Shown here in pieces: positions 13,418 to 58,568 of a stretch of 58,568 nucleotides of DNA. Position 1 is the first letter of the stretch; each line of letters begins with the position of its first letter. The stretch covers positions 1 through 58,568 of the forward strand of contig JABSQW010000072.1 of the NCBI GenBank assembly GCA_013215605.1, given 5' to 3'. The position numbers were made by a program, and so were the translations under genes. This DNA is from Myxococcales bacterium (GTDB lineage Bacteria; Myxococcota_A; UBA9160; SMWR01). Below the pieces are notes generated by a model. That model had not been told where the DNA came from, did not search any database, and was given only the letters and a program-made list of their open reading frames with translations.

Positions 13418-16276
<2,859 letters not shown>

Positions 16277-16289
16277 CCAGTCCACGCAC

Positions 16290-20805: not shown

Positions 20806-21100
20806 GCGGACCTCGTCATGGGGGCCGGAGTGTAGCCCCGACCCCTGCGCCCGGGGGGCGATCCGCTTCGCAGAAGCCGGTCGCTGCTTCGAGGATTCCT
20901 ACCGCCACAAAGACGCGATCGAGTACACCCTGTAGGCGGGGACGACACCAAGATCCTCGAGCTCCTCGAGAAGTCGGGCGGCTACCGCGCAGGTCAGCCT
21001 CTCTCATCGATCGCCGGTCGGCGCGGTGCGTTGTCGGTGACAGACGTCTGTCGCCTCGGCCGATTGATCGACGGCCCTGCAGACCGCTCGAGTCGAGCGT

Positions 21101-33521: not shown

Positions 33522-33677
33522 GAAACACCCCCCTCGCGGGCATTGATTGGGGGGTTATCGACACGCTTGGTTTCCGAATGAAGGAGTTTCCAGTGGGCCG
33601 AGAAACCTGCTTGGGGGCACGGCGACGCTGTCATGCAGGTCGCCCGCAGTTCCCGCGCAGCCCGCCCGGGGGCGGGG

Positions 33678-35834: not shown

Positions 35835-35841
35835 GGGGAGG

Positions 35842-43282: not shown

Positions 43283-44380
43283 ATGGCGAAGTTGCGCCTG
43301 GGCCTGCTGTTCGGCGGTCGTTCGGTGGAGCACGAAGTTTCGCTGTCTTCCGCGACGTCGATCCTGCGGGCGCTCGACCCGACCCGCTACGACGTGACGC
43401 TCATCTCGGTGGGCCACGACGGCCGCTGGCGCCTCGGTGCACCGTCCCTGCCGGCGCCCGCCGAGCAGGCGGAAGGCCGCGAGGTGCGACTCCCGGCCGC
43501 TCCCAACGGCGGTTCCCTCGTGCCGGTGGGTGGGACGGAGCTCGGAGCCTCGGGCGACCTCGACTTGATCTTCCCCATCATCCACGGTCGCGGCGGCGAA
43601 GACGGAAGTCTGCAGGGCCTGCTCGAGCTTGCGGACGTCCCCTACGTGGGCTCGGGCGTCCTCGGATCCGCGCTGCAGATGGACAAGGAGACCGCAAAGC
43701 GGCTGCTCCACGCGGCCGGCCTGCCTGTCACACCCTGGCTCTGCGTTCGCTCGCGCGAGCTCACGCGAGACTCGGAACGCGTCGCGCAACGAGCGCTCGA
43801 CGCGCTGTCGCTGCCGCTCTTCGTGAAGCCGGCAAACTCTGGATCGTCGATCGGCATCACGCGGGTTGCGGCGGCCGACGAGCTCATCCCCGCGCTGCGC
43901 GAAGCGGCGCGCTACGACGACAAGCTCCTGATCGAGCGGGGCGTGGACGCCCGGGAGCTCGAGGTCGCGGTACTCGGGGGCGATCCTCTCGAGGCGTCGG
44001 TTCCGGGAGAGATCCGCACGGGACGCGATTTCTACGACTACGAAGCCAAGTACGTCGACGAGGACACCGAGCTCATCGTCCCCGCGGAGCTGACGGAGGA
44101 GCAGATCGCGGAGATCCGGCGCCTCGCGGTGGAGGCGGTGGCCGTCCTCGAGGGTGAGGGTCTCGGCCGTGTCGACTTCCTGATGGAGCGCTCGACCGGG
44201 AAGTTCTACATCAACGAGGTGAACAGCCTTCCGGGATTCACCGAGAGCTCGATGTACCCGCGACTCTGGGAGGCGTCGGGACTCAGTTACCCGGCGCTGC
44301 TCGAGAGGCTGATCGAGCTGGCGCTCGAGCGCCACAGCGTCCGCTCGAAGCTCGAAACGCTCTTCCGGAGCGGGACCTGA
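43283..44380 (+). CDS. ddl: D-alanine--D-alanine ligase
   Basis: FGGRSVEHEVS, HGRGGEDG, KPANSGSS, FYDYEAKY, NEVNSLPGFT. Confidence 0.97.
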   Translation: MAKLRLGLLFGGRSVEHEVSLSSATSILRALDPTRYDVTLISVGHDGRWRLGAPSLPAPAEQAEGREVRLPAAPNGGSLVPVGGTELGASGDLDLIFPIIHGRGGEDGSLQGLLELADVPYVGSGVLGSALQMDKETAKRLLHAAGLPVTPWLCVRSRELTRDSERVAQRALDALSLPLFVKPANSGSSIGITRVAAADELIPALREAARYDDKLLIERGVDARELEVAVLGGDPLEASVPGEIRTGRDFYDYEAKYVDEDTELIVPAELTEEQIAEIRRLAVEAVAVLEGEGLGRVDFLMERSTGKFYINEVNSLPGFTESSMYPRLWEASGLSYPALLERLIELALERHSVRSKLETLFRSGT

Positions 44381-44383
44381 CGA

Positions 44384-45820
44384 CTACTTCACCACGTACC
44401 CGAGCGCCTTGAGCTGGCCGAGCATCAGCTCGCTCACCTCCTTGCGCTCGGGCTCGACACCCCACGGACTCGACGCCGACGCCACATAGCCGTCCACCAT
44501 CGCGCGCAGCCGGGCGGTGTCCTCGGGGCGCTCCGCCTGAACGTTCTCCATCTGCCCGGGGTCGGTGCTGTGGTCGTAGAGTTCGATCCGCTCCGGCTTT
44601 GCCAGCGGGTAGAAGAGCTGTAGATCGCCATCTTGAAGCGCGATGAGGGGATTCGGCTCGATTCCACGCCTTCCCCAGCCAATGTTGAGCTGGCCGAACG
44701 CGGGCCGCTCGAGGCCCTCGGTGGAGGGGGCATCGGCGGCGGCACCCGCTGCGAGAACGATTGGAACCAGCGAGACCCCGTCGACATGGGGCATCGGCGG
44801 AAGACCCACGAGATCGAGAATGGTGGGCCAGAGGTCCATGTTCGAGGCGAGCGTGTCGACCTCGATGCCCCCTTCGATATAGAACGGCGGGATGATGATG
44901 AACGGGACGTTCGTGACCTCCCGATAGAGATTCTTCGCGTGGCCCTCCCAGCCGTGCTCCTGAAAGGCCTCGCCGTGATCGGCCGCGATCACGAGCAGCG
45001 TCTTGCGGCGCAGCCCGCGTTCGCTCAGCTCCTCCACGAAGTGTGCGAGGAGGCGGTCGGACCAGTGGATCGACTGGTCGTAGACGTCGAGGTAACTCGT
45101 TCCAAATCGCGCGGCGCCGTTGTCGTAGACGTACTGGTGGACGTCCATGAAGTGGATGTAGAGAAAGAACTTCTGGTGCCCGTAGTTGTCGAGGAACTCC
45201 TTCGCAGAGACGATGAGGTCCTCGTCGGTTCCGGCGAGGAAACTGCCGCTCGGGTTCTTCCGCGCGATGCGTGCGCGCTCACGCCCGGCGAGGGGCTTGA
45301 TGTAGGTGTCGAAGCCCTGTTTGAATCCGAAGTTGGGCGCCACCCATCCGTTGCGGTAGATACCGGCGGTCCGGTAACCCGCCTCCTTGAACACTTCGGC
45401 GGGGAGCGTTGCGACGTCCGGTATCACGTGGTCGTAGTGGACGATCCCGTTGTTGAGAGGGCGGGTCGCCGTCCAAAGCGACGCCATGGACGTCTTCGTC
45501 CAGCTCGACTGCGAGACCATTTCCTTGAAGACCACTCCGCCCTGCGCGAGGGCGTCGATATTGGGGCTCGTGTCGCGCTCGTAACCGTAGATGCCGAGGT
45601 GATCGGCACGCAGGGTATCGATGAGGAGGAAGACAACGTTGAGGTCGTCGCGTTCGGACAGCGCAGCGAGATCTTCGACCGTTCCAAAGGAGACGGCCGG
45701 CCGCCGGATCTCGAACTGGCTCGCAACAGCAACGACCAGCAGCAGGGCAGCCCCGACGAAGTAGGGCCACGGCTTGTCCCACCAGCTCCCCTCTTCGGTC
45801 TCGTCGGGCTCGTCAGCCAT
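44384..45820 (-). CDS. Membrane-anchored sulfatase-like (alkaline phosphatase superfamily) protein
   Basis: N-terminal TM helix, LIDTLRADHL, QSSWTKTS, MDVHQY, ADHGEAF, LKALGY tail. Confidence 0.88.
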   Translation of the reverse strand: MADEPDETEEGSWWDKPWPYFVGAALLLVVAVASQFEIRRPAVSFGTVEDLAALSERDDLNVVFLLIDTLRADHLGIYGYERDTSPNIDALAQGGVVFKEMVSQSSWTKTSMASLWTATRPLNNGIVHYDHVIPDVATLPAEVFKEAGYRTAGIYRNGWVAPNFGFKQGFDTYIKPLAGRERARIARKNPSGSFLAGTDEDLIVSAKEFLDNYGHQKFFLYIHFMDVHQYVYDNGAARFGTSYLDVYDQSIHWSDRLLAHFVEELSERGLRRKTLLVIAADHGEAFQEHGWEGHAKNLYREVTNVPFIIIPPFYIEGGIEVDTLASNMDLWPTILDLVGLPPMPHVDGVSLVPIVLAAGAAADAPSTEGLERPAFGQLNIGWGRRGIEPNPLIALQDGDLQLFYPLAKPERIELYDHSTDPGQMENVQAERPEDTARLRAMVDGYVASASSPWGVEPERKEVSELMLGQLKALGYVVK

Positions 45821-45924
45821 CCAGAACAGCGTAAGCGATCGGCTGAAATGCGGCTCGACGAATGTCGGACCGCCTGAACTTTTCTCGCTCTGCCTCGGGA
45901 GTCTGCCAGGAACTCGAAGACCCC

Positions 45925-45962
45925 AACAAGAAAGGCGGCCACCCCTTTCGGAGTGGCCGCCT
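45925..45962 (-). terminator. Rho-independent terminator of the PEP-CTERM gene
   Basis: 10-bp stem AGGCGGCCAC/GTGGCCGCCT followed on the minus strand by TTCTTGTT, ~30 bp after the stop. Confidence 0.8.
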
Positions 45963-45991
45963 CGAAGTGGACAGAGTCCTGGGACTCTGAG

Positions 45992-46861
45992 TTACTTCTT
46001 CATGCGGCGGTGACCGAGGACGGCCAGACCGGCAACACCCGACACGATTAGCAGCATCATTCCCGGCTCGGGAACGGGGCGAATTGTCAGAATCGACGTC
46101 CCAGAGCTCTTTTTCGCGCTCGTATTCGTAATGTTGGTCGTCACCTGGGTCGGCGTCACGAACTGCAGCACGCCAGCCGGGCCAGAGGCTCCGCCGAGCG
46201 CCACTGTCGACGCCAGGGACGCGGGACCGTGAGCCGTACCCTTCTCCGTCACGATGCTGAAGCCCGTACCCGGACCGCCGGTCGAATTTACCGAACCACC
46301 GGTGTCCGGCTGGTCGATCATTTCACCGGTCATGATCGTCCACGGTCGGGCATCGATCGAAATGCGCAGCGAGCCCGATCCACCGATCGTCTGCTGGCCA
46401 CCCAGGCCGGCTCCGATGCCACCGCCCGGCGCGAGGTTCAGCGGCAGGTTGACGCCGCAGCCCACAACCAGGCACAGCCGAACGAGCCCGCCGGCGAGAC
46501 CCATCGTGTTCTTCGTCAGCGCGATGACCGTGTCGCCGGAGCTGCCGGGCACGATCTTACCGAGGACGCCTGCGCCTCCGGTCGCCGTCAGGCGAATCGA
46601 GACAAAGACACCGTCGGGGTCCGTCACCGGAACGATCTGGGAGCCAGCGATATCGCCCGGACCCAGTGTCAGTGTCGTCACATGGCTGCCGCCCGCTCCG
46701 CCATTCAGCGTCGCGACGCCGGTACCCGTAACGATGGCCGGGTCGAGTTGACCGAGGGTTACTTGGATGGTACCCGCGTAGTAGGACGTGCCCGCGGTCG
46801 CCTGCATGGCGAAACCGAAGACCACGGCCGTAGCGAATAACAGGACTAATAGTTTTCGCAT
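45992..46861 (-). CDS. PEP-CTERM sorted surface protein (~289 aa, Gly/Thr/Ser-rich)
   Basis: Signal peptide MRKLLVLLFATAVVFGFAMQATA; C-terminal VPEPG, TM helix, RRMKK; AAGGAG RBS. Confidence 0.95.
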   Translation of the reverse strand: MRKLLVLLFATAVVFGFAMQATAGTSYYAGTIQVTLGQLDPAIVTGTGVATLNGGAGGSHVTTLTLGPGDIAGSQIVPVTDPDGVFVSIRLTATGGAGVLGKIVPGSSGDTVIALTKNTMGLAGGLVRLCLVVGCGVNLPLNLAPGGGIGAGLGGQQTIGGSGSLRISIDARPWTIMTGEMIDQPDTGGSVNSTGGPGTGFSIVTEKGTAHGPASLASTVALGGASGPAGVLQFVTPTQVTTNITNTSAKKSSGTSILTIRPVPEPGMMLLIVSGVAGLAVLGHRRMKK

Positions 46862-46957
46862 CGTTGTTGGCTCCTTTGGAGTCGTTGTTCTGGTGCCGCG
46901 GTACGAACGTCGTTCGACGGCCCGCCCACGGCACAGGCATTCCTGGCAAGATAAGAA

Positions 46958-46973
46958 TGCAACTCGGGTGCCA
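46958..46973 (-). promoter_or_regulatory. Sigma-54 (-24/-12) promoter of the PEP-CTERM gene
   Basis: Minus strand TGGCACCCGAGTTGCA has GG-N10-GC spacing and matches TGGCAC-N5-TTGCW. Confidence 0.85.
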
Positions 46974-47000
46974 GCTCCTCGAACTCTCGAAGATTCCCTA

Positions 47001-47018
47001 TAACTATTTGAAAAATAT
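47001..47018 (-). promoter_or_regulatory. Probable IHF site upstream of the sigma-54 promoter
   Basis: TTTCAAATAGTTA is one mismatch from WATCAANNNNTTR; AT-rich; ~27 bp upstream of the -24 box. Confidence 0.6.
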
Positions 47019-47535
47019 AGACTAATCGGATCGATGCGACACCCCCAGGGATAGGCGGAGTGCCCTGATTGGAAGCATCTTCCCCAAAAAGAGAAAAGAA
47101 GTTCCCAGGCTTCCCATGGGTTGGGGGGTCGTGCCTTCGTCCCCACTCGATCGGTCGAGAATCGGGTGCCTTCGAGCGAGCCATGGCGTGCTCGTGTGTG
47201 GTGAGTTTCTCACACCCAACTTAAGGTAGTGATCGGTTCATTCGAAGACTGGATTGGGGCTGCTGGGGGAACCGCACCCGTGCTCTCCGAATGTGGGATA
47301 GCGACACGATGTGCGTCCTGCCGAAGCTTTCGACCGTGGGATAAAGTCGCGAAATGGTTAAGAAATTCTCGTTCCTCCCGCACATCTCACGGGGCGCCGT
47401 CGTATAATCCGCCACGCATTTGGACCCCGTCCCCCCGCTCGCAGCGCGCCTCGGACGTTCCTGCTGATCTGCACGAGAGAAAGTCCCCGGGGTTCTGCCC
47501 ATCCAGACGATTCGTTTTGGAGGTCTTCGCGACCG

Positions 47536-49998
47536 ATGCCCACATCCAGTTCGCCTCAAAGTCCCCCGCTGCGAGGTCTCGAAATCGGGTTTCCCGAGAC
47601 CCCGAGGGCCGGCTCCGTCCGGTCCCGGTCGCCGCTTGCGGCGCTCGGTTTCCTTCTCTTCGTCGCGCTCGGCTGCGGCGGCGACATCGAGTCGCGGATG
47701 GCCGAAGTGCGCGCCCTGCAGGATGTTGGGCAGTTCACCGCCTCCATCGAAGAGTTGCGGGAAATCCTCGTGTCGGTCCCCGACCTCCCCGAGGCGAGCT
47801 ACCGACTGGGCGTGGCCCTGGTCCAGACCGGCGAGCGGAGCCGCGCGATCTGGTCGCTCCAGAAGGCCAGCGAGTCGTCGGAGTACGCGGTGCCCGCCGG
47901 CTCGCTTCTCGCAACGATCTACCTGACCAATCAGGACTACGAAGAGGCGCTCAACGTCATCGATCGCGTCCTCGAGATCGAGCCCGACCGCCAGGCCGCC
48001 CTGCTGTCGCGCGCCAAGGCGAACATCGGCGCCAAGAACTTCGACATCGCGCTGGCCGACAGCGTGCACCTCATTGAGCTGTTTCCCGACGACTACACGG
48101 CACACGCCGTGCACGCCACGGCTCTGGTAGACGCAGGCAAGCTCGAAGAAGCCGAGATCGTCCACGATCGCCTGAAGACGATGAGCGCCGAGAGCGGCGA
48201 CCCCGACACCGAGGCGCGCGGTTGCCTCGCACCGGCGCTGTTCGCGAAGGACCAACTCAAGGACATCGAGAAGGCGACGGCCCTCTACGAGGACTGCATG
48301 ACGAAGTTCCCGAACAAGGGCTTCGTCCTCACGCAGGTCACAGAGTTCTACGACGGGATCGGCCGCGACGATCGCTCGACGGAGATCTTCCGAAAGGCCA
48401 TCGAGGACTCACCGGAGAATCTCGGACTGCGGTCCAGCCTCGCGAACCGCCTGCGCGGTCGCGGGCAGACCGAAGAGGCCGAGAGCGTCTTCGTCGAAGC
48501 GGCCGACACGTTCGGATCCGCCCAGGCCTGGAACATGCTCGCCGGCTTCTATCGCATGACCGATCAGCCGCAGCAGGCCCTCGACGCGATCGACAAGGTC
48601 ATCGAGCTGTCCGGCAACGCCCGTGACCCGATTCGCTTCGCACAGGCCGATCTGCTCGTCGACCTCGGCGAGCTCGACCGCGCGGAAGAGATCGCCGACT
48701 CCCTCGGCGAGCCCACCTACGCGACGCTGATCAAGGGCCGAGTGTTGATGTCGCGTGGCGACGCCGCCGGTGCCCTCGAAGCCTTCGACAAGGGCATCCG
48801 GAGCTGGCCCAACAACGCCGCTGCGCGATACCTCGCCGGCCTGGCCGCGCGCGATCTCGGACTGTTCGACCGAGCGATCTCGGAGCTTCGCGAATCGGTG
48901 CGCGCCGACCAGACGGCCACGGACGCCGCCGTGGTCCTCTCGCGGATCTACTTCGATCGCGGCGACCACAACAGCGCTCTCACCTTCGCGAACCTGTTCA
49001 TCAAGGGCCGACCCCAGGCGGACCAGACCCCAGCGCTGCGCATCGCGGCGCGCTCAATGACCGCGCAGAAGCGCTACCCCAACGCGCGGCGCAGCGCCGA
49101 GCTGCTCGGTCGACTCCCGGGCGGGGAGCTCGCGTCGCTGGTCGAGCTGGCGCGTATCGAACGCGCCGCCCAGGGACCCGCGGCCGCCATCGAGGTGCTC
49201 GAGGGAACGGAGATCGATTTCCTCACCGAGGAGAGCGAAGAGATCCTGCGGCTGCTCGCCGACAACTACATCGAGCTCGAGCGACCGGGCGATGCGCTCG
49301 CGAAGGTCGACGCTGCGCTCGCCACACGGCCCGATGCGGCCTCGCTCCACGAGCTCCGCGCAACCTCCCTCGCGCGCCTCGATCGGCGCGACGAAGCCCT
49401 CGAGTCGTTCCGCAGGGCTACCGAACTCGACCCGGAGCACGCACCCGCCTTTGGCGGCCTCGCCACCCTGACGGCCATCGGCGGGCAGAGCGGCGAGGCC
49501 ATCGAGCTCTTCGACCGGGCGAGCGCGCTCGCGCCGGACAACGTCGACTACGCCTATTCGGCGGCGCAGCTCGCCCTCGCGGCGGGAGATCTCGACGGAG
49601 CCGCGGAGCGACTACGCGGTGTGGTGCGCCGGTCGGCCAGTCACGCGGGCGCCCGCAACGACCTCGCCTGGATCCTCACCGAGCGTTCGGGAGATCTCGA
49701 CCTCGCGCTACGCCTGTCGAAGGAGGCGCGAAGACTCTCGGCGACCGCGAACAACCTCGACACGCTCGGCTGGGTGCACCTGAAGCGCGGCGAAGCCGAG
49801 GCCGCGGTGAGCGTCCTCGAGAAAGCCACTGCCCTCGAACCCGACGCGCCGAGCATCCGCTACCACCTCGCGCTCGCGCTCGAAGAAGTCGGTCAGCCTG
49901 CGCGCGCCAAGGACATGCTGCAGGCGGCGCTCGACGCCGGCGCATTTCCCGAGGTCGAGGATGCGCGCAAGAAACTCGAGCAGTTCAGCCAGCTCTAG
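47536..49998 (+). CDS. TPR-repeat lipoprotein, PrsT-like (PEP-CTERM system)
   Basis: Lipobox VALGC, TPRs throughout, C-terminal NDLAW...LDTLGWVHLKRG...YHLALAL; divergent from the PEP-CTERM gene. Confidence 0.8.
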   Translation: MPTSSSPQSPPLRGLEIGFPETPRAGSVRSRSPLAALGFLLFVALGCGGDIESRMAEVRALQDVGQFTASIEELREILVSVPDLPEASYRLGVALVQTGERSRAIWSLQKASESSEYAVPAGSLLATIYLTNQDYEEALNVIDRVLEIEPDRQAALLSRAKANIGAKNFDIALADSVHLIELFPDDYTAHAVHATALVDAGKLEEAEIVHDRLKTMSAESGDPDTEARGCLAPALFAKDQLKDIEKATALYEDCMTKFPNKGFVLTQVTEFYDGIGRDDRSTEIFRKAIEDSPENLGLRSSLANRLRGRGQTEEAESVFVEAADTFGSAQAWNMLAGFYRMTDQPQQALDAIDKVIELSGNARDPIRFAQADLLVDLGELDRAEEIADSLGEPTYATLIKGRVLMSRGDAAGALEAFDKGIRSWPNNAAARYLAGLAARDLGLFDRAISELRESVRADQTATDAAVVLSRIYFDRGDHNSALTFANLFIKGRPQADQTPALRIAARSMTAQKRYPNARRSAELLGRLPGGELASLVELARIERAAQGPAAAIEVLEGTEIDFLTEESEEILRLLADNYIELERPGDALAKVDAALATRPDAASLHELRATSLARLDRRDEALESFRRATELDPEHAPAFGGLATLTAIGGQSGEAIELFDRASALAPDNVDYAYSAAQLALAAGDLDGAAERLRGVVRRSASHAGARNDLAWILTERSGDLDLALRLSKEARRLSATANNLDTLGWVHLKRGEAEAAVSVLEKATALEPDAPSIRYHLALALEEVGQPARAKDMLQAALDAGAFPEVEDARKKLEQFSQL

Positions 49999-50010
49999 AT
50001 CGAGATTCTG

Positions 50011-52482
50011 ATGTTCAAGCCCCTTTCCCTCCATCGCGCCACGCACCTCGCGCTCTCCGGTCTCCTCGCCGGCGTCCTCGTCACCACGGGCTGCAAGTCG
50101 CCCGAGGAGCGCGTCGCCGACCACGTCGCGCGCGCCGAGGAGTACATCGCGAATGGCCAGCGCAAGGAGGCCATCCTCGAGTTCATGAGCGCGCTCAACG
50201 TCGACCCCGCCGACGCCGAGATCAGCGAGCGCGTCGCTCATCTGATGAGTCGACAGGGCGCGCTCGAGACCGCGGCCCGGTACTTCCTCGAGGCGTACAA
50301 CCTCGACCCGACACGCGTCGGGGCGGCCATGCACCACGCGGAGCTGATCGCCTGGACGCAGCGTGAGCGCGCCGACCGGCTCGTCGCGGACGCCCTCGAG
50401 AGCTCGCCCGACGAGCCGATCGTGCACCGTACCGTCGCGACGCTGGCGCTGATCGACCAGGATCTCGATGCCGCCAACGCGGCCGCGCAGAAAGCGATCG
50501 CCCTCGACGAGACCGACCCGGAGAGCTGGGCCCTGCTGGGGCGCGTGCGGCTGGGTTCGGTCAGCCTCGCGATCCTCTCGAAGAGCGTTCCGCCGGACGC
50601 CGTGTACCAGGAGTCCATCGCGGCCTTCAGCAGGGCTGACGAACTCCGGGGGGGCGACGTCGGCGTGAAGCTCGAGCAGGCGAAGGTGCTGGCGGCCTGG
50701 CAGGGACACGCCAGCGAGGCGATCGCCGCCTACGACGCGGCGATCGAGCTGGCAAAACAGCAGGGGGATTCCGAAGTTCGGTCCTTCGCCGCGCACGCCC
50801 TCGCCGAATACGGACAAAAGAGCGGACGCCCCAAGCTGCTCGAGCGCGGGCTGCGGGAGGTGGTTGCCGCCGCGCCCAACGAGATTCGAACCTGGCGCCG
50901 TCTCGCCGAAGTGTCCCACCGCTCGGTTCCGGGATCCGGACAGTGGGTCTTCGACCAGCTCCTCGAGCAGCGCCCCAACGACGCGCGCGCCCACCGCGCC
51001 TACACCAACTACCTGGTCAGTCACGATCGGGCACACGACGCCATCGGCTACCTCGAAAGGGTGCTGGCTGATGGCATCGACAGCCCGGCGATGTGGGACG
51101 ACCTGATCCGCTATCGGCTGCAGCGCGGCCAGATGAGCGAAGCCCAGGCGAGTCTCGCGAAGCTCGAGGAGCGGGCGGGCGACCACCCGCTCACCCAGCG
51201 GGCCCGCGCGCGCGTCGCGATGGCCGAGGGTCGCAACGGAAAGGCCGTCGAGCTCCTCCGCTCGATGCCCGCCGCGGCGAATAGTGTCGAGGGCCAGCGA
51301 CTGCTCGCGCTCGCGGAACTCCGCCGCGGCAATCTCGACGAAGCCGGCGCGGCCATCGACCGCTCCGTCGCGCTCTCCGACGAGTTCGCGATGCCGTCGA
51401 TGCGCCTCAAGGCCCGTATCCACCACGCCGCCAACGAGTGGAGGCGGGCCTATGACACATTCAAGGAGATCGGTCAGCACACGGTGGACCTCACCGCCAG
51501 TGAGAAGCTGATGATCGCGCGGGCGATGTACGAACGGCGCCGACCCAAGGCCGCGCGAGGAGTCCTCGAAGAAATTCTCGCCGGCGACGACTTCCATCCG
51601 ATGGCGGCCGTGGAATTCGCGCGGCGCGAGGGGCTGCGAAGTCCCAACGCGGCGTTGGACTACCTGAGCGCGGTGCGGGCCCGGGAGCCGGGCAACTACC
51701 CCGTCCTCGAAGCCGTCGTCACGCTCTACCGACAGCGGGGCGGGTCAGTGGAAGCGTTAGCGATCGTGAAAGAAGCGGTCGCCGCGGGGCACGGAGGACC
51801 ACGCGCCATGCTGTTGCGCGCCCAGCTCCTCGCGGACACGGGTGACCTCGCGCGCGCCGAGACCGACGCCCTGCGCGCCTTCGAAGCGGCACCCGCTCTG
51901 CCCGGAGCGGTCGACGTTCTGATTCGCATCTACCGCGGTCAGGACAAGCTCGAGGCGGCACTGCGGTCCTTCGAAGAAGCCGAGGCGGCCGGCGTGCTCC
52001 ACACCGGCGCGCGACGCTTGCTCGGTCGCCTCTACGCCGAGCAGGGCCAGTTCGAGCAGGCGCAGGAAATGCTCGAGAAGGTGATCGCCGATCGCCCACG
52101 GATGGGCGGCCCGAAGAGCGACCTCGCCGTCGTGCTCGTCGAGCAGGGCGTGGATCTCGAGCGCGCGATGGACCTCGCGCGCGAGGGCGCGAAATCCCAG
52201 GCGCTGGATCCAACGGCCGCCTACGCGGCCGGAACCGCGTACTACCACAACGGCCTGCACGAGGCCGCGCTCGTGGAGTATCGGCGCGCCATCAACCTCG
52301 ACCTTTCGGGCGATAAACGACTCGCGCCCACCCTCCAGTACCACCTCGGGTTGACCCTCAAGGCTCTCGACCGTGGAGCGCAGGCCGCAGCCGCGTTCTC
52401 GACGGCCCTCGAGATCTCCCCCAACTTTCCCGAGGCCGACGAGGCGCGCCGCCAGCTCGAGGAAACGAAGCAGACCTCCTAG
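50011..52482 (+). CDS. Second TPR-repeat lipoprotein, PrsT-like paralog
   Basis: Lipobox VTTGC, all-TPR body, 823 aa, C-terminal FPEADEARRQL similar to the upstream paralog (FPEVEDARKKL). Confidence 0.8.
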   Translation: MFKPLSLHRATHLALSGLLAGVLVTTGCKSPEERVADHVARAEEYIANGQRKEAILEFMSALNVDPADAEISERVAHLMSRQGALETAARYFLEAYNLDPTRVGAAMHHAELIAWTQRERADRLVADALESSPDEPIVHRTVATLALIDQDLDAANAAAQKAIALDETDPESWALLGRVRLGSVSLAILSKSVPPDAVYQESIAAFSRADELRGGDVGVKLEQAKVLAAWQGHASEAIAAYDAAIELAKQQGDSEVRSFAAHALAEYGQKSGRPKLLERGLREVVAAAPNEIRTWRRLAEVSHRSVPGSGQWVFDQLLEQRPNDARAHRAYTNYLVSHDRAHDAIGYLERVLADGIDSPAMWDDLIRYRLQRGQMSEAQASLAKLEERAGDHPLTQRARARVAMAEGRNGKAVELLRSMPAAANSVEGQRLLALAELRRGNLDEAGAAIDRSVALSDEFAMPSMRLKARIHHAANEWRRAYDTFKEIGQHTVDLTASEKLMIARAMYERRRPKAARGVLEEILAGDDFHPMAAVEFARREGLRSPNAALDYLSAVRAREPGNYPVLEAVVTLYRQRGGSVEALAIVKEAVAAGHGGPRAMLLRAQLLADTGDLARAETDALRAFEAAPALPGAVDVLIRIYRGQDKLEAALRSFEEAEAAGVLHTGARRLLGRLYAEQGQFEQAQEMLEKVIADRPRMGGPKSDLAVVLVEQGVDLERAMDLAREGAKSQALDPTAAYAAGTAYYHNGLHEAALVEYRRAINLDLSGDKRLAPTLQYHLGLTLKALDRGAQAAAAFSTALEISPNFPEADEARRQLEETKQTS

Positions 52483-52487
52483 TTTTG

Positions 52488-52564
52488 GGGACCCGATCTG
52501 GGCAAAGCCCAGATCGACCCGGGCTTCGCTCGCCGATGGCTCGCTGCGCGCGCTTCGCGCTTGC
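52488..52564 (+). repeat. Full copy of REP-like intergenic element
   Basis: GATCTGGGC-AAA-GCCCAGATC hairpin (52495-52515) plus CTTCGCTCGCCGATGGCTCGCTGCGCGCGCTTCGCGC; between convergent genes. Confidence 0.8.
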
Positions 52565-52584
52565 AACTCGAGGGACCGTGACTT

Positions 52585-54231
52585 CTAGAAGTGATGTTGG
52601 TACTTGCGGAGCTCCGCGATCTCTTCGCGTGTTGCTTCGTCTGTCGGTCCTCCGACCTCGAGTGCCCGCTCGAGCACGGCAATCGCTTCACTCATCTCGC
52701 CGCGCGCCACGTAAGCGCGCGCGACGGTGCGAAGCTCGAGCTGTGTCGGGTTCTCCTTGACGTGAAACATCGCGATCCGGCGCGCTGCGATCTCGCTCAC
52801 CACGGCCCGAAACTTCGCGTGCTTCCGGATGGGCGCGAGCGCGGGATCGGCGTCGAGCTGCTGAAAGCGCAGATAGCCCCGCGCCACGGCGCCTCGAATG
52901 TTCTCCACGGCGGTGTCGACGTCACCGAGCTGCGCCGACCGCTGCGCGCGCTGGAGATGAGCCGAGACTCCGTTCGGGTAGTGGCTTGCGGCGTCGTCGA
53001 GAATGAACACGGGATTGCGCCAGATCGCCGCACGCTCGCCACTGTGCCAGGCGAAGAAGACCAACATCCCGGCACCCGCACCCATCAGGGCGCGACGGAC
53101 CTTCTCGGCGCTGCCCTCGTCGACGAGCTGCGAAAAAACGTCGCGCCCCATCAGCAGTGCGACGCCGATCAGCCCCGGCATGATGAAATAGAGGTAGCGA
53201 TCCGCCATCGGGTAGAGGAATGGAAACACCTGGGAGACGGGCGCGAACGACACCAGCGCCCACACCCAGTAGGCGACCTCGTTCCGCCGTGCGCGGATTC
53301 CCGTCAGTAGACGCCACGCGACGAATACGGCGGCGGGCAGGGCCGCGAGCCACCAGAGATCGAACGGCGAGTGCACGGGCTCGGGCTCGTGGAACGCCGA
53401 GACGCCGTACGACGTGCCCGCCATCACGAGATAGCGGACGGCGAGGGCCATCACGGTGCGAATCAGGACGAACGGCGTGTCGTAGAGCACGGCGTCCGCG
53501 GCTCCGGAGCGTTGGTGGGCGCTGAACTCGATCGCCGCGTACGTCGCGAGGACGAGCACCGCCACCAACAGCCAGCGTCGGGGTGGGAGCAGTGCGCGGG
53601 CCCCGCGCGCCGGGTCGGCGGCGCACCACGCGAAGACGGCCGCCACCGGTAGCACGAACGCCGCGGTCGGCTTGGCGAACAGCGCGAGACCAAACAGCAG
53701 GGTGGCGAGCGCCGGCCGCCTCGCGAACCAGAGCAATGACGCGAGCGACAGCACCAGCGCAGAGCTCGACTTCAGCTGGCTGATCCACGCCACCGCCTCG
53801 ACGTTTGCGGGGTGGAGGAGGAACCAGCTCGCACCGAAGAACGCAGCCATCCTGGGAATCCGACTGCGGACCAGCAGAGGGAAGAGCAGCGCCGACGCGA
53901 GCGCGTGCAGCACGACGTTCGCAACGTGATGTCCGAGGGTCGAGGTCCCGAACAGCTTCCACATCACAGCGTGGAGCAGGAGATGAATGGGCGTGTAGTT
54001 CACCACCGCCACCGCCGCGCCGCCAGTCGGGTCGAGGATGTCGACGACGTTTTCGAGCGACAGCTCGTGGATGTAGACGTTGTCGCGGACGTAGTGGAGG
54101 TCGTCCGAGACGAACGGACCCTGCAGCACCCGACCGTACACGAACAGTGAGACGACGAGGAATCCGCAAAACAGCAGGGCGACGCTGCCGGCCTCGCCTG
54201 CGCTCGACCCGGACGACTTCGGCCGCGCCAC
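52585..54231 (-). CDS. TMTC-like GT-C membrane glycosyltransferase with short TPR tail
   Basis: FVSDDLHY, NYTPIH, HPANVEAVAWISQLK, MADRYLYF, DPALAPIR; GTG start just after the upstream stop. Confidence 0.85.
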   Translation of the reverse strand: MARPKSSGSSAGEAGSVALLFCGFLVVSLFVYGRVLQGPFVSDDLHYVRDNVYIHELSLENVVDILDPTGGAAVAVVNYTPIHLLLHAVMWKLFGTSTLGHHVANVVLHALASALLFPLLVRSRIPRMAAFFGASWFLLHPANVEAVAWISQLKSSSALVLSLASLLWFARRPALATLLFGLALFAKPTAAFVLPVAAVFAWCAADPARGARALLPPRRWLLVAVLVLATYAAIEFSAHQRSGAADAVLYDTPFVLIRTVMALAVRYLVMAGTSYGVSAFHEPEPVHSPFDLWWLAALPAAVFVAWRLLTGIRARRNEVAYWVWALVSFAPVSQVFPFLYPMADRYLYFIMPGLIGVALLMGRDVFSQLVDEGSAEKVRRALMGAGAGMLVFFAWHSGERAAIWRNPVFILDDAASHYPNGVSAHLQRAQRSAQLGDVDTAVENIRGAVARGYLRFQQLDADPALAPIRKHAKFRAVVSEIAARRIAMFHVKENPTQLELRTVARAYVARGEMSEAIAVLERALEVGGPTDEATREEIAELRKYQHHF

Positions 54232-54233
54232 CG

Positions 54234-55919
54234 CTACCCGCTCCCCGGCATCCGCTCGCGCATGCGTACGAGTTCCTCGCGCACGAGGTCGTCCTGGAAT
54301 CCGCCGATGGCGAGCGCCCGCTCGAACGCCTCTGCGGCGAGTGCGTACTCGCCGCGCACCTGGTGGGCGAGTCCGACGATCCGGTACTCGGGCTGCGTCG
54401 TGACTCCGCGGCGTCGGGCTTTTTCGATCCAGCGGCCAGCCATCTCGCGAACCAGCTCCTGGAACGCGGGATCGCGGCGAATGGGCGCGAGCCCGGGATC
54501 GGTGAGGAGGATCGAGAAGCGCGCCGCGTGGTTTTCCTCCGCGCGCCGCAGGAGCGGAATCGCCGCGCTGACATCGCCGCGCTGCGCAGCGCTGCGCGCG
54601 TCGAGGAAGCTCGCGGTACCGCCTTCCGGATAGTGGCGCGCCGCATCGAGGAGCAACTTCGTCTCGCTCTTCCAGAGCGAAGCACGCGCCGCACTCCGCG
54701 CGCCGAATCCACACAGCACCACGAACGCGAGCACCCACGCTATCGACCTTGCGCGAGCACCGCCCTGGCGCGGGAATCGAGCGGCGGCCAGCAGCACGCC
54801 CCCGATCAAGCCGGGGAGGATGAAGTAGAGGTAGCGATCCGCCAGGGGATTCACGAACGGGAGGATCTGCGACACCGGACCAAACGAGGCCGCCGCGAAC
54901 AGCCACCACGCCGCCTCCTCGCTGCGGGCCCGCAGGGTCGCGACGATGCGCCAGGCGAGAAGCGCGGCCAGGGGGAGCGCGGCCAGCCACCAGGGATTCG
55001 CGAACGAGGTGACCGGAGCCGGCTCCTGGAACGCAGCGACGCCGTAGGAAGTCACCGCCATCACGAGGTATCGCGACCCGACCGCCGCGATGGACCGCAC
55101 GTGCACCCACGGATCCGAATACGCGGGCTCCTCGAACGCGGAACCGAACCCGAACGAGCTGAGCTCCGGAACCACGTAGATGAACAAGACGAGCAGCCAG
55201 ACGCCCACGCCCTGCCAGTGGGCGCGCGATCCTCCGGGTCCGCCGCTGCGCGCCCAGGTCAACGCCGCGATCATTGGCAGTGCCGCGTAGGCGGACGCCT
55301 TCGTGAGCAACGCCACGGCGAACACAGCACCGCTCCACATGGGGATTCGCCGGTGAAGGAGCATCGCAGCGAGCGTGAGGACGAGCGACCCGGTGGTCTT
55401 CAGCTGGGAGATCCACGCCACGGCTTCGACGTTGGCCGGATGGACGAGGAAAAAGAGGGTACCGGCGATCGCGAGCGGAGCGGCCACCTGCGACCGCCCG
55501 AGCAACGCCGCGAGCAGCAGCGCGGCGAGCGCGTGCAGGGCCACATTCACGAGGTGGTATCCCAGCACTTCGTCGGCGAATATCTGTCGTTCGATGGCGG
55601 TAACCACCAGGTGAATCGGCGCGTAGTTGGCGGTGTACTCCCTTGCCTGTCCGGCGGGGTCGAACATCTCGATCAGGTTCGGGACGTCGAGGGAGGTCGT
55701 GTACGGATTCGTGACGATGTACCCGAAGTCGTCCGAGACGAACACGCCGCGGAGAGCGCCCTGGTAGACGAACAACGAGATCGCCGCGAACGCGGCGAAT
55801 GCCAGAAGGGGGCCGCCCCGCGGCCATTCGAGGGTGGGCAGGGACAGCGGGGAGGGCCCCGGCGCTGCGACGCTGTTGCCCTCGTGGTCGTCCGCTCCGG
55901 GCCCTGCCTTCGACGCCAT
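54234..55919 (-). CDS. TMTC-like GT-C membrane glycosyltransferase, tandem paralog
   Basis: FVSDDFGY, NYAPIH, HPANVEAVAWISQLK, LADRYLYF, DPGLAPIRRDP. Confidence 0.85.
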   Translation of the reverse strand: MASKAGPGADDHEGNSVAAPGPSPLSLPTLEWPRGGPLLAFAAFAAISLFVYQGALRGVFVSDDFGYIVTNPYTTSLDVPNLIEMFDPAGQAREYTANYAPIHLVVTAIERQIFADEVLGYHLVNVALHALAALLLAALLGRSQVAAPLAIAGTLFFLVHPANVEAVAWISQLKTTGSLVLTLAAMLLHRRIPMWSGAVFAVALLTKASAYAALPMIAALTWARSGGPGGSRAHWQGVGVWLLVLFIYVVPELSSFGFGSAFEEPAYSDPWVHVRSIAAVGSRYLVMAVTSYGVAAFQEPAPVTSFANPWWLAALPLAALLAWRIVATLRARSEEAAWWLFAAASFGPVSQILPFVNPLADRYLYFILPGLIGGVLLAAARFPRQGGARARSIAWVLAFVVLCGFGARSAARASLWKSETKLLLDAARHYPEGGTASFLDARSAAQRGDVSAAIPLLRRAEENHAARFSILLTDPGLAPIRRDPAFQELVREMAGRWIEKARRRGVTTQPEYRIVGLAHQVRGEYALAAEAFERALAIGGFQDDLVREELVRMRERMPGSG

Positions 55920-57062
55920 CGCGGTCGAGTCTACCAAGCCCTCGCGCGAATCCCGGTCCTCCTGCTGCTCGCAGCAGGTGTGGCCTGCACCGAGCAGCGC
56001 GCACCAGCGGCACCCGATCGCGCGGATCAGCGACTCGAGATCCGCGGCGCCGCATCCGGAGGGCTCGTGTTCGTCCGCATGAGTGGAGCGTCGATGGATC
56101 TCGTACGCGCCCGGTTGTCCGACGGATCGATCGCTCACCTCACCGACACCGACGATCGGAACGAGAGCTGGCCCTACTGGTCGCCCGCGGCGGGTCGCCT
56201 CGTCTACCAGAGCGCCGGGCGCCGCGACGGCGGGCACGCCACCCCGACCGACCTGATGCTGTGGCGACCCGGAGGCGAGCCGCGGCCGCTCCTCTCGACG
56301 CCAGCGCGCAACGAGAGTTGGCCGGTGTGGTCGCCGGACGGACGCCGCGTCGTACACGTCTTTCGGGGCCCTGGCAGCGCGGCCGGGATCGCGAGCATAG
56401 ACGTCGCCACGGGCCAATCGACGCTCGTCGCCCGCGTCGTGCCACCCCGATTCCTCCTGCGCCCCAACTTCGCGCCAGACGGTGTGCGAATCGTCGCCGA
56501 GCAGCGGCGCGACTCGGGGGGTACCGCGCTGCGCGTACTCACACCGGGAGAGCCCCCGAGTGTCCTCACCGACGAGCCGAACCTGTCGGACTCGAAGGCC
56601 TGGTTCTCGCGCGATGGCGCGACGATCGTGTTCACTCGGAGTGCGGGCAGCAATTCCCTGGCCTCGAGCGACGTGTTCTCGATCCCCTCGACCGGCGGAT
56701 CCGCGCGCCCCCTGTTCGCCGATCCCGATCTCGCCGAACACTCCGCCCGCCCGTCGCCGACCCGCGACGAGGTGGTCTACATCGCGGGTCCGGACGGACA
56801 CACCGACGTATTTATCGCGAACCTGGACGGCAGTAGAAGCCGGCCGCTCGTGCGAACCGCGGACGTGAACGAGTTCACGCCGCGGTGGTCGCCCGACGGC
56901 GAGTTCTTCACGGTGATCGCGGTGCCCGCCGGCAGAGGCCCAGGCCGCCTCGACGATCCGGACTCGCTCGCTCGAATCCAGCTCCGCGCGTACGACCGCG
57001 AGGGAAACCTGCGCTTCGACACGAGGGGGATGATGGCGGACTGGATGCCCGCGTGGCCGTGA
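55884..57062 (+). CDS. TolB-like WD40/PD40 beta-propeller lipoprotein (start uncertain)
   Basis: Lipobox LLLLAAGVAC; repeated ESWPYWSP, WPVWSPDG, PNFAPDG, FSRDG, PRWSPDG blades. Confidence 0.8.
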   Translation: MVVRSGPCLRRHRGRVYQALARIPVLLLLAAGVACTEQRAPAAPDRADQRLEIRGAASGGLVFVRMSGASMDLVRARLSDGSIAHLTDTDDRNESWPYWSPAAGRLVYQSAGRRDGGHATPTDLMLWRPGGEPRPLLSTPARNESWPVWSPDGRRVVHVFRGPGSAAGIASIDVATGQSTLVARVVPPRFLLRPNFAPDGVRIVAEQRRDSGGTALRVLTPGEPPSVLTDEPNLSDSKAWFSRDGATIVFTRSAGSNSLASSDVFSIPSTGGSARPLFADPDLAEHSARPSPTRDEVVYIAGPDGHTDVFIANLDGSRSRPLVRTADVNEFTPRWSPDGEFFTVIAVPAGRGPGRLDDPDSLARIQLRAYDREGNLRFDTRGMMADWMPAWP

Positions 57063-58568
57063 CCCACGATCGGCGTGACCCGGCCCCGGAGACCCGAACC
57101 CTCGCGATCTCGGTCGCTCTCCTCGTCGTCCTGACGCTTGCGGTCTTCCTGCCATCGCTCGGTTACGAGTTCGTCAACTACGACGATCCCATCATGATCG
57201 CCAACAACCCGCACGTCGCCAACGGCGTCTCGATCGACGGCCTGCGCTGGGCGTTCACGACTTTCTACGGTGCGAATTGGTTCCCTCTCACGTGGATCTC
57301 GTGGATGCTCGGCGCGTCGCTGTTCGGATTGGACGCGCGCGCCTTCCACGCCACGGGTGTGCTGTTGCACGCATGCACCGCGGCGCTCCTCTTCCTCACG
57401 CTCGTGCGCGCGACCGGCAAGGTCGCTCCGAGCGCGTTCGTGGCGGCCGTCTTCGCGGTGCACCCGCTCCACGTCGAGTCGGTGGTTTGGATCTCGGCGC
57501 TCAAGGACACGCTGAGCGGGCTCTTCTTCGCGCTCGCGCTCCTCGTGCACTGCGGCGGGCGCGGTGCAACGCCGACCCCCCAACGCCGCGCCGCTCTCTT
57601 CGGGTGTGTGCTCGCGTCGCTCATGGCGAAGCCCACGGCGGTCGTGCTCCCCTTCGCCCTGGTACTGCTCGACGCCTGGCCGCTCGGGCGACTCGGCGGA
57701 TCGGGCAGCAAGACGACTCGCGCGTTAGAACCGCGCGCGCTGCTCCGCTCGTTCGCGGAGAAGGTCGAGCTCTTCGTCCTGGTTGCTGTCGCCAGCGGTA
57801 TCTTCTTCGCCGCGCAACAGCACGCGGGTGTCGTCGTACCGCTCGAGCGTCTCGGTCTCGGCTCGCGCATCGCCAATGCGCTCGTCGCCTACGCGGCGTA
57901 CCTCGGCAAGGCGTTCTGGCCGAGCTCGCTCGCCGTCCTCTACCCACATCCCGGCGACAGCCTCCCCCTCTGGCAGCCGGCCCTGGCTGGTGTGCTCCTG
58001 CTCGCGGTGTCGGTTGCGGCGCTATCGGCATGGCGACGTGCGCCCGCCGTGCTCGTCGGCTGGCTCTGGTTTCTCGGCATGCTCGTCCCCACCATCGGCA
58101 TCGTGCAGGTCGGCTCTCAGGCCATGGCCGACCGCTACATGTACCTGCCGCTCGTCGGCCTCGCGGTCGCGCTGGCATTCGGACTGCCCGCCCTTTCCCC
58201 ACGCGCAACCCATGCGACGGGCGGTCGCCTAGCGATTGCCGCGGCTGCGGTCGCAGTGGTCGGGCTCGCCACAACAGCCGCCGTGCAGACGGCGGTCTGG
58301 CGAAATAGCATCACGTTGTTCGAGCACACGCTCGATGTGACGAAAGACAATCCGATCGCACACGCCCACCTCGGCGCCGCCCTCCTCGCACGCGGCCGCG
58401 TCGAGGAGACCGTCACCCACTACACGGAGTCGATCCGGCTGAGCCCCAACGACGCGGACGTGGCGAACAACTTCGCTTGGCTCCTCGCCACCTACGACGA
58501 CGTCGAAATCCGCAACCCCTATCTCGCGGTGCGCCTGGCGGAACGCGCGGTCGCCCGGACGCAGCGCA
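57059..58568 (+). CDS. TMTC-like GT-C glycosyltransferase with TPRs (partial, runs off window end; not in the ORF track)
   Basis: GTG at 57059 overlaps the TolB-like stop; reads ...YEFVNYDDPIMI...GANWFPLTW...HPLHVESVVW...MADRYMYLP...NNFAWLLAT with no stop. Confidence 0.88.
   Translation, partial: MTHDRRDPAPETRTLAISVALLVVLTLAVFLPSLGYEFVNYDDPIMIANNPHVANGVSIDGLRWAFTTFYGANWFPLTWISWMLGASLFGLDARAFHATGVLLHACTAALLFLTLVRATGKVAPSAFVAAVFAVHPLHVESVVWISALKDTLSGLFFALALLVHCGGRGATPTPQRRAALFGCVLASLMAKPTAVVLPFALVLLDAWPLGRLGGSGSKTTRALEPRALLRSFAEKVELFVLVAVASGIFFAAQQHAGVVVPLERLGLGSRIANALVAYAAYLGKAFWPSSLAVLYPHPGDSLPLWQPALAGVLLLAVSVAALSAWRRAPAVLVGWLWFLGMLVPTIGIVQVGSQAMADRYMYLPLVGLAVALAFGLPALSPRATHATGGRLAIAAAAVAVVGLATTAAVQTAVWRNSITLFEHTLDVTKDNPIAHAHLGAALLARGRVEETVTHYTESIRLSPNDADVANNFAWLLATYDDVEIRNPYLAVRLAERAVARTQR

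Follow-up and report, generated by a model that had tools for sequence, protein, structure and literature searches.

TMTC1-4 are eukaryotic protein O-mannosyltransferases (GT105) of the membrane for which a list of conserved motifs (M1-M7) has been given, including a strictly conserved Asp-Asp pair (DD) in the first extracytoplasmic loop (PMC7801869). The PMTs (GT39), according to the accounts in PMC7759382 and PMC12705809, glycosylate Ser/Thr-rich proteins and work as dimers. In Pseudomonas aeruginosa the GT-C enzyme TfpW is described as having 11 predicted transmembrane (TM) helices, a periplasmic loop with a DDX motif and, at its C-terminus, a periplasmic domain of tetratricopeptide repeats (TPRs); its gene lies directly after the substrate gene pilA, and the protein, a D-arabinofuranosyl transferase, is needed for pilin glycosylation (bioRxiv 10.1101/2020.04.19.049825). 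In Aquincola tertiaricarbonis, pepA adjoins prsT and is reported to have a sigma-54 (-24/-12) promoter; prsT is needed for floc formation, and overexpression of PepA shifts the distribution between bound and released exopolysaccharide (PMC9850573). The present analysis concerns a 58,568-nt stretch of DNA from a Myxococcales bacterium (contig JABSQW010000072.1 of assembly GCA_013215605.1), called the window below, in which positions 44384-58568 hold the gene of a PEP-CTERM surface protein together with genes for two TPR lipoproteins (TPR1 and TPR2), three GT-C-type glycosyltransferases (GT1, GT2 and GT3), a β-propeller lipoprotein and a sulfatase-like enzyme (Sulf1). Tentatively, and with slightly less than even confidence, we read this set as a conserved envelope-glycosylation cluster joined to a PEP-CTERM/PrsT-like module, which would carry out periplasmic O-glycosylation of exported proteins, with the PEP-CTERM protein as the main candidate substrate.

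An initial annotation had proposed a TMTC-type protein O-glycosylation system serving the PEP-CTERM protein. Every element that it listed is present at its place, including open reading frames (ORFs), translations and choices of start, and its interpretation as a whole is partly supported. Contig C684, which makes up the window, comes from a genome bin of 6.74 Mb (genome G000; 713 contigs, completeness 89.9%, contamination 4.69%). Genome-level counts refer to 151 genomes sampled from the order. Twenty loci around GT2-type matches were retrieved, 15 of which belong to f1, the family of G000 itself (excluding genus g2), and a wider scan covered 78 loci around GT1/2-type genes, 1.205 Mb in total, many of which come from genomes already in the f1 survey and are not independent of it. 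All 78 related loci belong to uncultured genome bins.

Glycosyltransferases of the cluster

GT1 (52585-54231, minus strand) and GT2 (54234-55919, minus strand) are GT-C-type membrane glycosyltransferases with a short C-terminal TPR domain and form a conserved tandem pair, in which the GT2 stop abuts the GT1 start. GT3 (57059-58568, plus strand) is a GT-C/TPR glycosyltransferase of a second subfamily; its start overlaps the stop of the propeller gene and its 3′ end is cut by the contig end. The AlphaFold2 (AF2) model of GT2, calculated from a 38-sequence alignment, has a pLDDT of 87.1 and a pTM of 0.86. A Foldseek search with this model gives 26 best rows that are all GT-C enzymes, including STT3, PglB, AglB, Pmt4, ArnT, ALG9/ALG3 and AftB/AftD, with a best E-value of 2.5e-3 and none at or below 1e-3. 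In VIA-align (48,161 chains) yeast Pmt1 (6p2r_A) ranks on top with Z 16.8, a root-mean-square deviation of 5.0 and 339 residues aligned, and the first 17 rows are GT-C-fold chains with Z scores of 16.8-12.1 and 294-342 aligned residues, among them a fungal PMT (9e61_A, Z 15.6) and ArnT (5f15_A, Z 14.7). As modelled, the membrane domain of GT2 has the GT-C fold. GT1, which is 43% identical to GT2, and GT3 are assigned to the same fold because they are matched by the GT2 membrane-domain profile, with E-values of 8.8e-155 and 8.8e-17, respectively. An N-oligosaccharyltransferase reading, for which the presence of STT3, PglB and AglB among the fold matches might speak, was set aside, as the C-terminal domain consists of TPRs and no WWD-type motif is seen by eye.

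The initial annotation had noted a first-loop DD together with HPxxVExVxW and ADRYxY motifs in all three enzymes, and the DD, HPxxVE and DRYxY motifs prove to be real and conserved. In the alignment of 38 GT2-type sequences Asp63 is invariant and Asp64 is at least 90% conserved, while His160, Pro161, Val164, Glu165, Trp169, Lys207, Arg362, Tyr363 and Tyr365 are invariant; the equivalent positions, including Asp43/Asp44, are invariant in 16 GT1 orthologues. Across six divergent paralogues Phe60, Asp63, Asp64, Pro101, His129, Glu165, Lys207, Arg362 and Tyr365 are invariant. In the GT2 model the acidic pair lies just after the first TM helix, which would place it in the first extracytoplasmic loop, the side of the membrane that it faces being assumed. 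Compared with the motif list of PMC7801869, M1 (DD) and M7 (DRxxY for ERxxY) are present, the Lys of M4 is kept with its Glu replaced by Pro or Ala, and M2 is reduced to N-Y/W-x-P. M3 appears as K-D in GT3 and as R-x-D in other paralogues and is not recognisable in GT1/GT2; M5 is not recognisable in GT1/GT2 either, and M5 and M6 are not assignable by eye.

TPR families and NF047558 are detected over the last 120-140 residues of GT1 and GT2 and, in GT3, over residues 380-500; the AF2 model of GT2 shows helical repeats at residues 419-556. The label 'TMTC-type' therefore holds for the architecture of a membrane GT-C domain with C-terminal TPRs and for two matching catalytic motifs, but Pfam TMTC_DUF1736 or another Pfam GT-C family is not reached. 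By their sequences GT1-3 are thus TMTC-like, with TMTC membership not established.

The GT2 membrane-domain profile finds 27 ORFs in the G000 genome. The 21 paralogues scanned with Pfam comprise 20 from other contigs and the fourth GT-C/TPR protein of the window (18706-20898, minus strand), which lies outside the range of the cluster and is 46% identical to GT3. Two of them pass PMT_2, three more approach PMT_2 and one approaches PMT. A single one, on contig C611, passes TMTC_DUF1736 (38.0 bits, cut-off 27) and aligns with the GT2 membrane profile from position 24 to 399 (E-value 6e-9). The bacterial family to which GT1-3 belong is large, with signatures of both the PMT_2 and the TMTC type. 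The ESM Atlas contains nearby bacterial clusters for the glycosyltransferases, one of which has PMT_2 on 30% of its members (score 0.98) and serves as a lead. A complex prediction for the membrane domains of GT2 and GT1 returned a score of 0.00 and gives no verdict for or against a heterodimer. On contig C228 (L068), at 585-2933, a PMT_2-positive GT-C/TPR gene (35.9 bits) is found ~300 nt from a divergent partial ORF at the contig end, whose resemblance to exosortases is weak (28.5 bits in Pfam; 20-22 bits in NCBIfam, far under the cut-offs).

The genes listed initially adjoin, but the cluster runs past the edge of the window. Contig C364 (L067, 1-5685) overlaps the end of the window: it starts with the last ~50 GT3 residues visible there and goes on with the C-terminus of GT3. 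After this come a Methyltransf_23 gene, an ORF of 614 aa that is GT-C-like, a DsbA-like gene and an ORF of 530 aa. The 614-aa ORF shares 45% identity with a PMT_2-positive protein found in a relative; for the 530-aa ORF a weak match to 'cell surface glycopolymer formation' (18.7 bits) is the sole one. Among the eight related loci scanned beyond GT3, six have the methyltransferase after it, and in two a PMT_2-positive membrane protein comes after. GT-C glycosyltransferases of the PMT/ArnT/TMTC clan, taken to face the periplasm, thus number three in the window part of the cluster and probably four or five when C364 is included. Gene-family scans of the cluster and its continuation identified no donor synthase.

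Conservation of the cluster and its PEP-CTERM gene

The block TPR1-TPR2-GT1-GT2-propeller-GT3, accompanied by one or two membrane-anchored, Thr-type sulfatase-like enzymes, recurs across many genera of uncultured Myxococcota with its gene order kept. TPR2-GT1-GT2 is kept in all 15 f1 loci, the propeller in 14, and GT3 and TPR1 in 13 each; the two loci without TPR1 are cut by contig ends. In some relatives a ~1000-aa MFS-spermidine-synthase fusion stands between TPR2 and GT1 (L014 8305-11385, L017 1835-4948), and its orthologue in G000 (48% identity) is located on a separate 3.9-kb contig, C338. The 5′ ends of the divergent propeller and GT2 genes overlap by at least 36 nt when the starts are chosen such that the lipoprotein signal and the first TM helix are kept (GTG 55884 for the propeller; ATG 55919 or TTG 55937 for GT2), and one of these starts may be wrong or non-canonical.

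The PEP-CTERM gene (45992-46861, minus strand) encodes a Gly/Thr-rich protein of 289 aa with a signal peptide and a tail consisting of VPEPG, a hydrophobic stretch and HRRMKK. The Pfam PEP-CTERM model PF07589 scores 20.0 bits (E 7.2e-4), 0.7 bit short of its cut-off of 20.7, and Pro264, Glu265, Pro266 and Gly267 are invariant in 18 homologues. The family further shows two conserved Cys residues and a conserved H-G-P-x-S-x-T-S-x-T-A patch. The mature protein contains 20.2% Gly, 13.4% Thr and 8.0% Ser, compared with 8.8, 4.9 and 6.1% in 2314 background ORFs of the genome, so that both the Thr/Ser/Gly-rich composition and the sorting tail described initially are borne out. The AF2 model is all-β, with a mean pLDDT of 53.2, and too poor for a fold search.

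The PEP-CTERM gene is separated from TPR1 by a divergent intergenic region of ~675 nt (46862-47535). The element TGGCAC-N5-TTGCA (46958-46973, minus strand), which precedes the ATG by 97 nt, is the one place in the window where the sigma-54 consensus is matched exactly, and the exact match alone counts, as a relaxed pattern with up to two mismatches gives 11 matches in the window where 13.7 are expected; relaxed matches in the whole 6.7-Mb genome number 21. In relatives the same sigma-54 element is found 58-207 nt upstream of all 16 readable in-cluster PEP genes, compared with none of five off-cluster copies, and in the wider scan it precedes 6 of 13 readable PEP-family ORFs. Alignment of the 16 upstream regions reveals repeats ~100-130 nt upstream, with the consensus tTTcc-N7-GGAAaa-N3-TTTCc (TTTCC..GGAAA..TTTCC at 47071-47100, minus strand), which may form an enhancer-binding-protein site. 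Between the repeats and the promoter lies a partly conserved A/T-rich block (tCAg..acTT; 47001-47014, minus strand), a putative IHF-site-like element. Directly 3′ of the stop codon an intrinsic-terminator-like hairpin is found (45932-45963, minus strand), with a 14-bp stem including 10 G-C pairs, a 4-nt loop and a T-rich tail. From these elements the PEP-CTERM gene is predicted to form a transcription unit by itself, with its own sigma-54 promoter and terminator, a feature newly described here. Neither an Rfam family nor a sigma-70-type promoter is found in the intergenic region, and scans of 44000-58568 for Rfam families and of 44300-47700 for sigma-70 promoters were likewise negative.

The PEP-CTERM gene is covered (45994-46900) at 90-99% identity by RNA-library contigs from two studies, and a third RNA study contains two identical pieces of the TPR1 gene. 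RNA-library contigs of runs X1-X4 include none over the sulfatase-like gene or upstream of 46900, which is not readable as absence of transcription. The G+C content dips to 0.63-0.64 at 44001-48000, compared with 0.66-0.71 in the rest of the window; the dip takes in Sulf1, the PEP-CTERM gene and the long stretch between the latter and TPR1.

The PEP-CTERM gene usually lies between the sulfatase-like gene and TPR1. The Sulf1-TPR1 interval is readable in 16 f1 genomes, three loci being unreadable at contig ends and left out, and in 11 of these it holds one to three PEP genes (G000, G136, G109, G017, G100, G133, G089, G032, G118, G093 and G065, the placement in G065 being judged from match coordinates only). 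Outside f1, a PEP gene occupies the interval in G015 (f7) and G087 (f12), and none is present in G042 (f4). PEP genes adjoin glycosyltransferase genes in at least four arrangements: Sulf1-PEP-TPR1; GT3-GT3-Sulf-Sulf-GT2-PEP (L092, L085); a PEP gene ~350 nt from a GT1-type gene (L148); and, in genus g2, an exosortase-DUF3485 fusion followed by a different PEP-CTERM family (tail LPEPE.W), a TPR-CHAT protein and a GT2-type gene. The g2 loci (L022 2817-13349, L023 4455-13188) also show a sigma-54-type motif, a TPR-CHAT protein of ~1130 aa and a single GT2-type gene per genome. Recurring co-localisation across genomes is thus found, in several gene orders, and the PEP-CTERM gene is often part of the cluster without being indispensable to it.

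The two TPR lipoproteins are TPR1 (820 aa; 47536-49998, plus strand; lipobox VALGC) and TPR2 (823 aa; 50011-52482, plus strand; lipobox VTTGC), each carrying the lipobox Cys. Orthologues in relatives share 41-63% identity with TPR1 and 36-50% with TPR2, and the divergent adjacency of TPR1 to the PEP-CTERM gene is the same there. Calling them PrsT-like is fair as a description of TPR lipoproteins beside a PEP-CTERM gene, but membership is not shown: TPR1 (255.7 bits) and TPR2 (159.2 bits) are both under the cut-off of 312.2 of the PrsT model TIGR02917. This model is itself unspecific: matches arise in 13 of the 14 control genomes, and of the 83 in G000 not one passes. Similarly, the propeller lipoprotein (55884-57062, plus strand, start uncertain) has PD40 repeats (PF07676, E 4.2e-11), but is far under the TolB cut-off (TIGR02800, 58.7 bits versus 343.15), so that the label 'TolB-like' stands for the repeats and not for membership. 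No Tol-Pal genes occur among the scanned ORFs of the window, and PD40 repeats are all that the propeller shares with TolB.

Sulf1 (44384-45820, minus strand) was described initially as a membrane sulfatase-like enzyme. It has one N-terminal TM segment and matches Pfam Sulfatase (PF00884, 172 bits), but all NCBIfam equivalogs are far under their cut-offs, and in an alignment with arylsulfatase 6hhm the Cys of CAPSR, which would yield formylglycine, stands opposite the Thr of WTKTS, so that the C/S-x-P-x-R maturation motif is missing at the nucleophile. By this alignment Sulf1 is a membrane-anchored, Thr-type member of the alkaline-phosphatase superfamily and not a formylglycine (S1) sulfatase. 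Its orthologues, 47-65% identical, flank the cluster in relatives. A second sulfatase-like enzyme (16200-17660, plus strand; PF00884 126.6 bits), outside the cluster, is 28% identical to Sulf1 (E 1e-39), has by eye a Thr at the nucleophile position, and is encoded beside the fourth GT-C/TPR gene, with no PEP-CTERM gene nearby.

The absence of an exosortase from the window's contig, stated initially, is confirmed, and an exosortase can be located elsewhere in the genome: all six exosortase (PF09721) matches lie on other contigs, with the best on C8 (247.6 bits). This protein scores 194.9 bits with TIGR02602 (cut-off 105.55) and 204.7 with the XrtA model (cut-off 208). At 10889-15664 of C8 an 843-aa PrsT-like TPR ORF, an NtrC-type (PrsR-like) regulator and a histidine kinase stand side by side, ~18 kb from the XrtA-like exosortase (33299-34078), and C8 is the more classical PEP-CTERM system of the genome. 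Naming PrsT, PrsR and PrsK by TIGR02917, TIGR02915 and TIGR02916 was abandoned, as many sub-threshold matches genome-wide cannot name them. An exosortase is present in 142 of the 151 genomes and never in the main cluster; at this frequency a phyletic comparison is uninformative.

At positions below Sulf1 the window contains ddl (43283-44380, plus strand) and a PP-loop-like ORF (42331-43182), which has no Pfam match at 1e-5 and is provisionally labelled 'LarE' after its SGGVDS motif. Further away, at 31578-35849, a response-regulator/DUF4388/DnaJ/TPR protein and an AsmA/YhdP-like protein are encoded, with no tie to the cluster seen.

Proposed function and alternatives

In the reading favoured here, the GT-C enzymes would take sugar from a polyprenyl-phosphate donor in the periplasm and transfer it, via the conserved DD loop, to Ser or Thr residues of exported proteins, with the TPR domain selecting the acceptor as in TMTC and TfpW. 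The in-cluster PEP-CTERM protein would be the best candidate substrate, neither sole nor obligatory, and its sorting signal would be cut by the exosortase encoded on contig C8. The PrsT-like and propeller lipoproteins may act in the periplasmic handling or export of the PEP-CTERM protein, possibly as a scaffold, and the Thr-type enzymes and the methyltransferase may decorate the glycan. Glycosylation of the PEP-CTERM protein, a lipid-phosphate donor and the role of the lipoproteins are inferred.

Several observations weigh against this reading. At the level of the enzymes, GT1-3 have no match to Pfam TMTC_DUF1736, PMT, PMT_2 or other GT-C families even at E <= 10, where TPRs are the sole matches and neither PF02366 (PMT) nor a MIR domain is found, and both a PDB sequence search (phmmer, GT3) and a PDB profile search return TPR matches only. 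The PEP-CTERM gene, moreover, is set apart from the glycosyltransferase and TPR genes by its own promoter and terminator. A shared regulon is not shown, because the sigma-54 pattern is not found in front of the glycosyltransferase or TPR genes and the PEP unit is separate. Five of the 16 readable f1 loci have no PEP gene in the interval (G025, G055, G124, G127, G130), and in G124, a genome 93% complete, the cluster is kept with no PEP-family match at E <= 1e-8. GT2-type genes (E <= 1e-60) occur in 103 of the 151 genomes and the PEP family in 46; therefore, the glycosyltransferases cannot serve only the PEP-CTERM protein. Within G000, only one of the 21 PEP-CTERM ORFs found by regular expression lies on the same contig as a member of the 27-ORF GT-C/TPR set. 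The closest PEP orthologue (G025, 60% identity) is found among P450, ABC-F and carboxyltransferase genes, and in the tree off-cluster copies are interleaved with in-cluster copies, requiring at least three changes. Finally, conserved gene order alone is weak evidence, because the unrelated ddl and PP-loop-like ORF are kept in place equally well.

Part of this evidence would suit an alternative in which the glycosyltransferases, Thr-type enzymes and methyltransferase build or decorate a non-protein glycoconjugate (exopolysaccharide, lipopolysaccharide or glycolipid), which the PEP-CTERM protein would bind or organise without being glycosylated by them. We regard this as unlikely, if clearly worth weighing. 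Many of the GT-C enzymes that match by fold work on lipid or polysaccharide substrates (ArnT, AftA/B/D, EmbA, PimE, ALG enzymes), GT2-type genes are more widespread than the PEP family, and pairs of sulfatase-like and GT-C/TPR genes occur without a PEP gene, both in the window (16200-20898) and, recurrently, in relatives (e.g. L026, L090, L133). Such a role has also been proposed for floc-forming XrtA systems, and PepA of Aquincola is described as affecting exopolysaccharide (PMC9850573). On the other hand, the two characterised enzymes that combine GT-C and TPR domains, TMTC (PMC7801869) and TfpW, are described as acting on proteins, and neither Wzx/Wzy, an ABC exporter, an initiating phosphoglycosyltransferase nor a polysaccharide export porin is seen in the cluster or its continuation.

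Quite unlikely is an inherited gene order without functional coupling, in which the PEP-CTERM gene would be a mobile, separately regulated cassette in one Myxococcota family. The separate promoter and terminator, an in-cluster copy number that ranges from 0 to 3, the displaced orthologue in G025, the interleaved off-cluster copies and the equally conserved ddl and PP-loop-like neighbours all fit this explanation, as do eight off-cluster PEP loci (L055-L059, L061, L062, L066) that have no GT-C, TPR1/2 or sulfatase-like neighbours. It accounts less well for the accumulation of PEP-CTERM genes near the glycosyltransferases: 20 filtered PEP-CTERM ORFs are found in the 78 loci (16.6 per Mb), within ~10 kb of GT1/2-type genes, where 3.2 are expected from the density in the window's own genome (18 filtered ORFs in 6.74 Mb, 2.67 per Mb), a ~6-fold enrichment that is itself weakened by a background of one genome set against loci from related genomes. 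Fourteen of the 20 match the PEP family of the window at E <= 1e-13 and are Gly/Thr-rich. Also against mere inheritance stand the four or more arrangements, one of them with a different PEP-CTERM family next to an exosortase, and the sigma-54 promoter that is kept only in in-cluster copies.

Very unlikely, and speculative in being consistent with the data without being indicated by them, is a periplasmic glycan or glycolipid acceptor, built by the GT-C enzymes and given phospho-modifications by the Thr-type ones, onto which the exosortase would ligate the cleaved PEP-CTERM protein, so that the cluster would encode both cargo and anchor and the TPR and propeller lipoproteins would carry the conjugate outward: the near-universal exosortase outside the cluster and the union of lipid-linked-donor enzymes, phosphotransferase-like enzymes and a cargo gene would agree with it, but the TPR domains point to protein acceptors, and the single TM anchor of Sulf1 is unlike EptA or LtaS, lipid-dependent transferases of a kind that has several membrane helices.

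Comparison with known systems

The kinds nearest to the cluster are TMTC and PMT for the enzymes, TfpW for a bacterial protein glycosyltransferase with GT-C and TPR domains, and XrtA/PrsT/pepA for the cargo module. ArnT, the lipid A aminoarabinose transferase (GT83), resembles GT2 in the GT-C fold and is likewise bacterial and uses a polyprenyl-phosphate-sugar donor; however, it is without a TPR domain and has a lipid acceptor, and sequence searches give no link to GT1-3. The fungal PMTs (Pmt1-Pmt2, Pmt4) provide the best structural match to GT2, have an acidic pair in loop 1, and find a parallel in the GT2-GT1 tandem pair. This likeness is structural only, and the glycosyltransferases carry a TPR tail where PMTs have a MIR domain.

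TMTC1-4, as described in PMC7801869, share with GT1-3 the arrangement of an N-terminal multi-pass GT-C domain and C-terminal TPRs, and resemble them in the DD of M1, an HP..(T/V)E(A/S)V segment, the Lys of M4 and the (E/D)RxxY of M7 before a late TM helix. Unlike in TMTC, the TPR tail of GT1 and GT2 is short (~130 aa), the genes are bacterial and stand together with lipoprotein genes, the system would work in the periplasm, and TMTC_DUF1736, which corresponds to the TM7-TM8 loop, is not matched. The presence in one genome of a bacterial family that bridges PMT_2-type and TMTC_DUF1736-type GT-C enzymes bears on the origin of TMTC. TfpW, likened here by its description and not by sequence comparison, is in the same way a bacterial GT-C enzyme with TPRs encoded beside the gene of a protein substrate. 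It is described as a single enzyme in a pilin operon, whereas the present cluster has a battery of three to five enzymes with lipoproteins, and the candidate substrate is an exosortase cargo with its own sigma-54 promoter.

The literature searched contains nothing that treats PEP-CTERM together with GT-C, and none of the papers listed for exosortase pairs it with TMTC, PMT_2, ArnT or DUF1736; to that literature the combination of a GT-C cluster with a PEP-CTERM/sigma-54 module is new, the kinds of component being already known. What becomes of the widespread PEP-CTERM proteins after translation is known largely by inference; the cluster, whose carriers are all uncultured metagenome-assembled genomes, supplies concrete enzyme candidates and a concrete candidate substrate, and the conserved sigma-54 promoter with its upstream repeats offers a handle on regulation.

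It is in this last respect that the locus comes close to the XrtA/pepA system. As in the account of PMC9850573, a PEP-CTERM gene stands beside the gene of a large TPR lipoprotein and a -24/-12 promoter precedes the PEP-CTERM gene only, and in the G000 genome, too, an exosortase and NtrC-type regulators are encoded. The two systems differ in their surroundings: near the present cluster there are no exopolysaccharide genes, exosortase or prsK/prsR, and the neighbours of the PEP-CTERM and TPR lipoprotein genes are GT-C enzymes instead.

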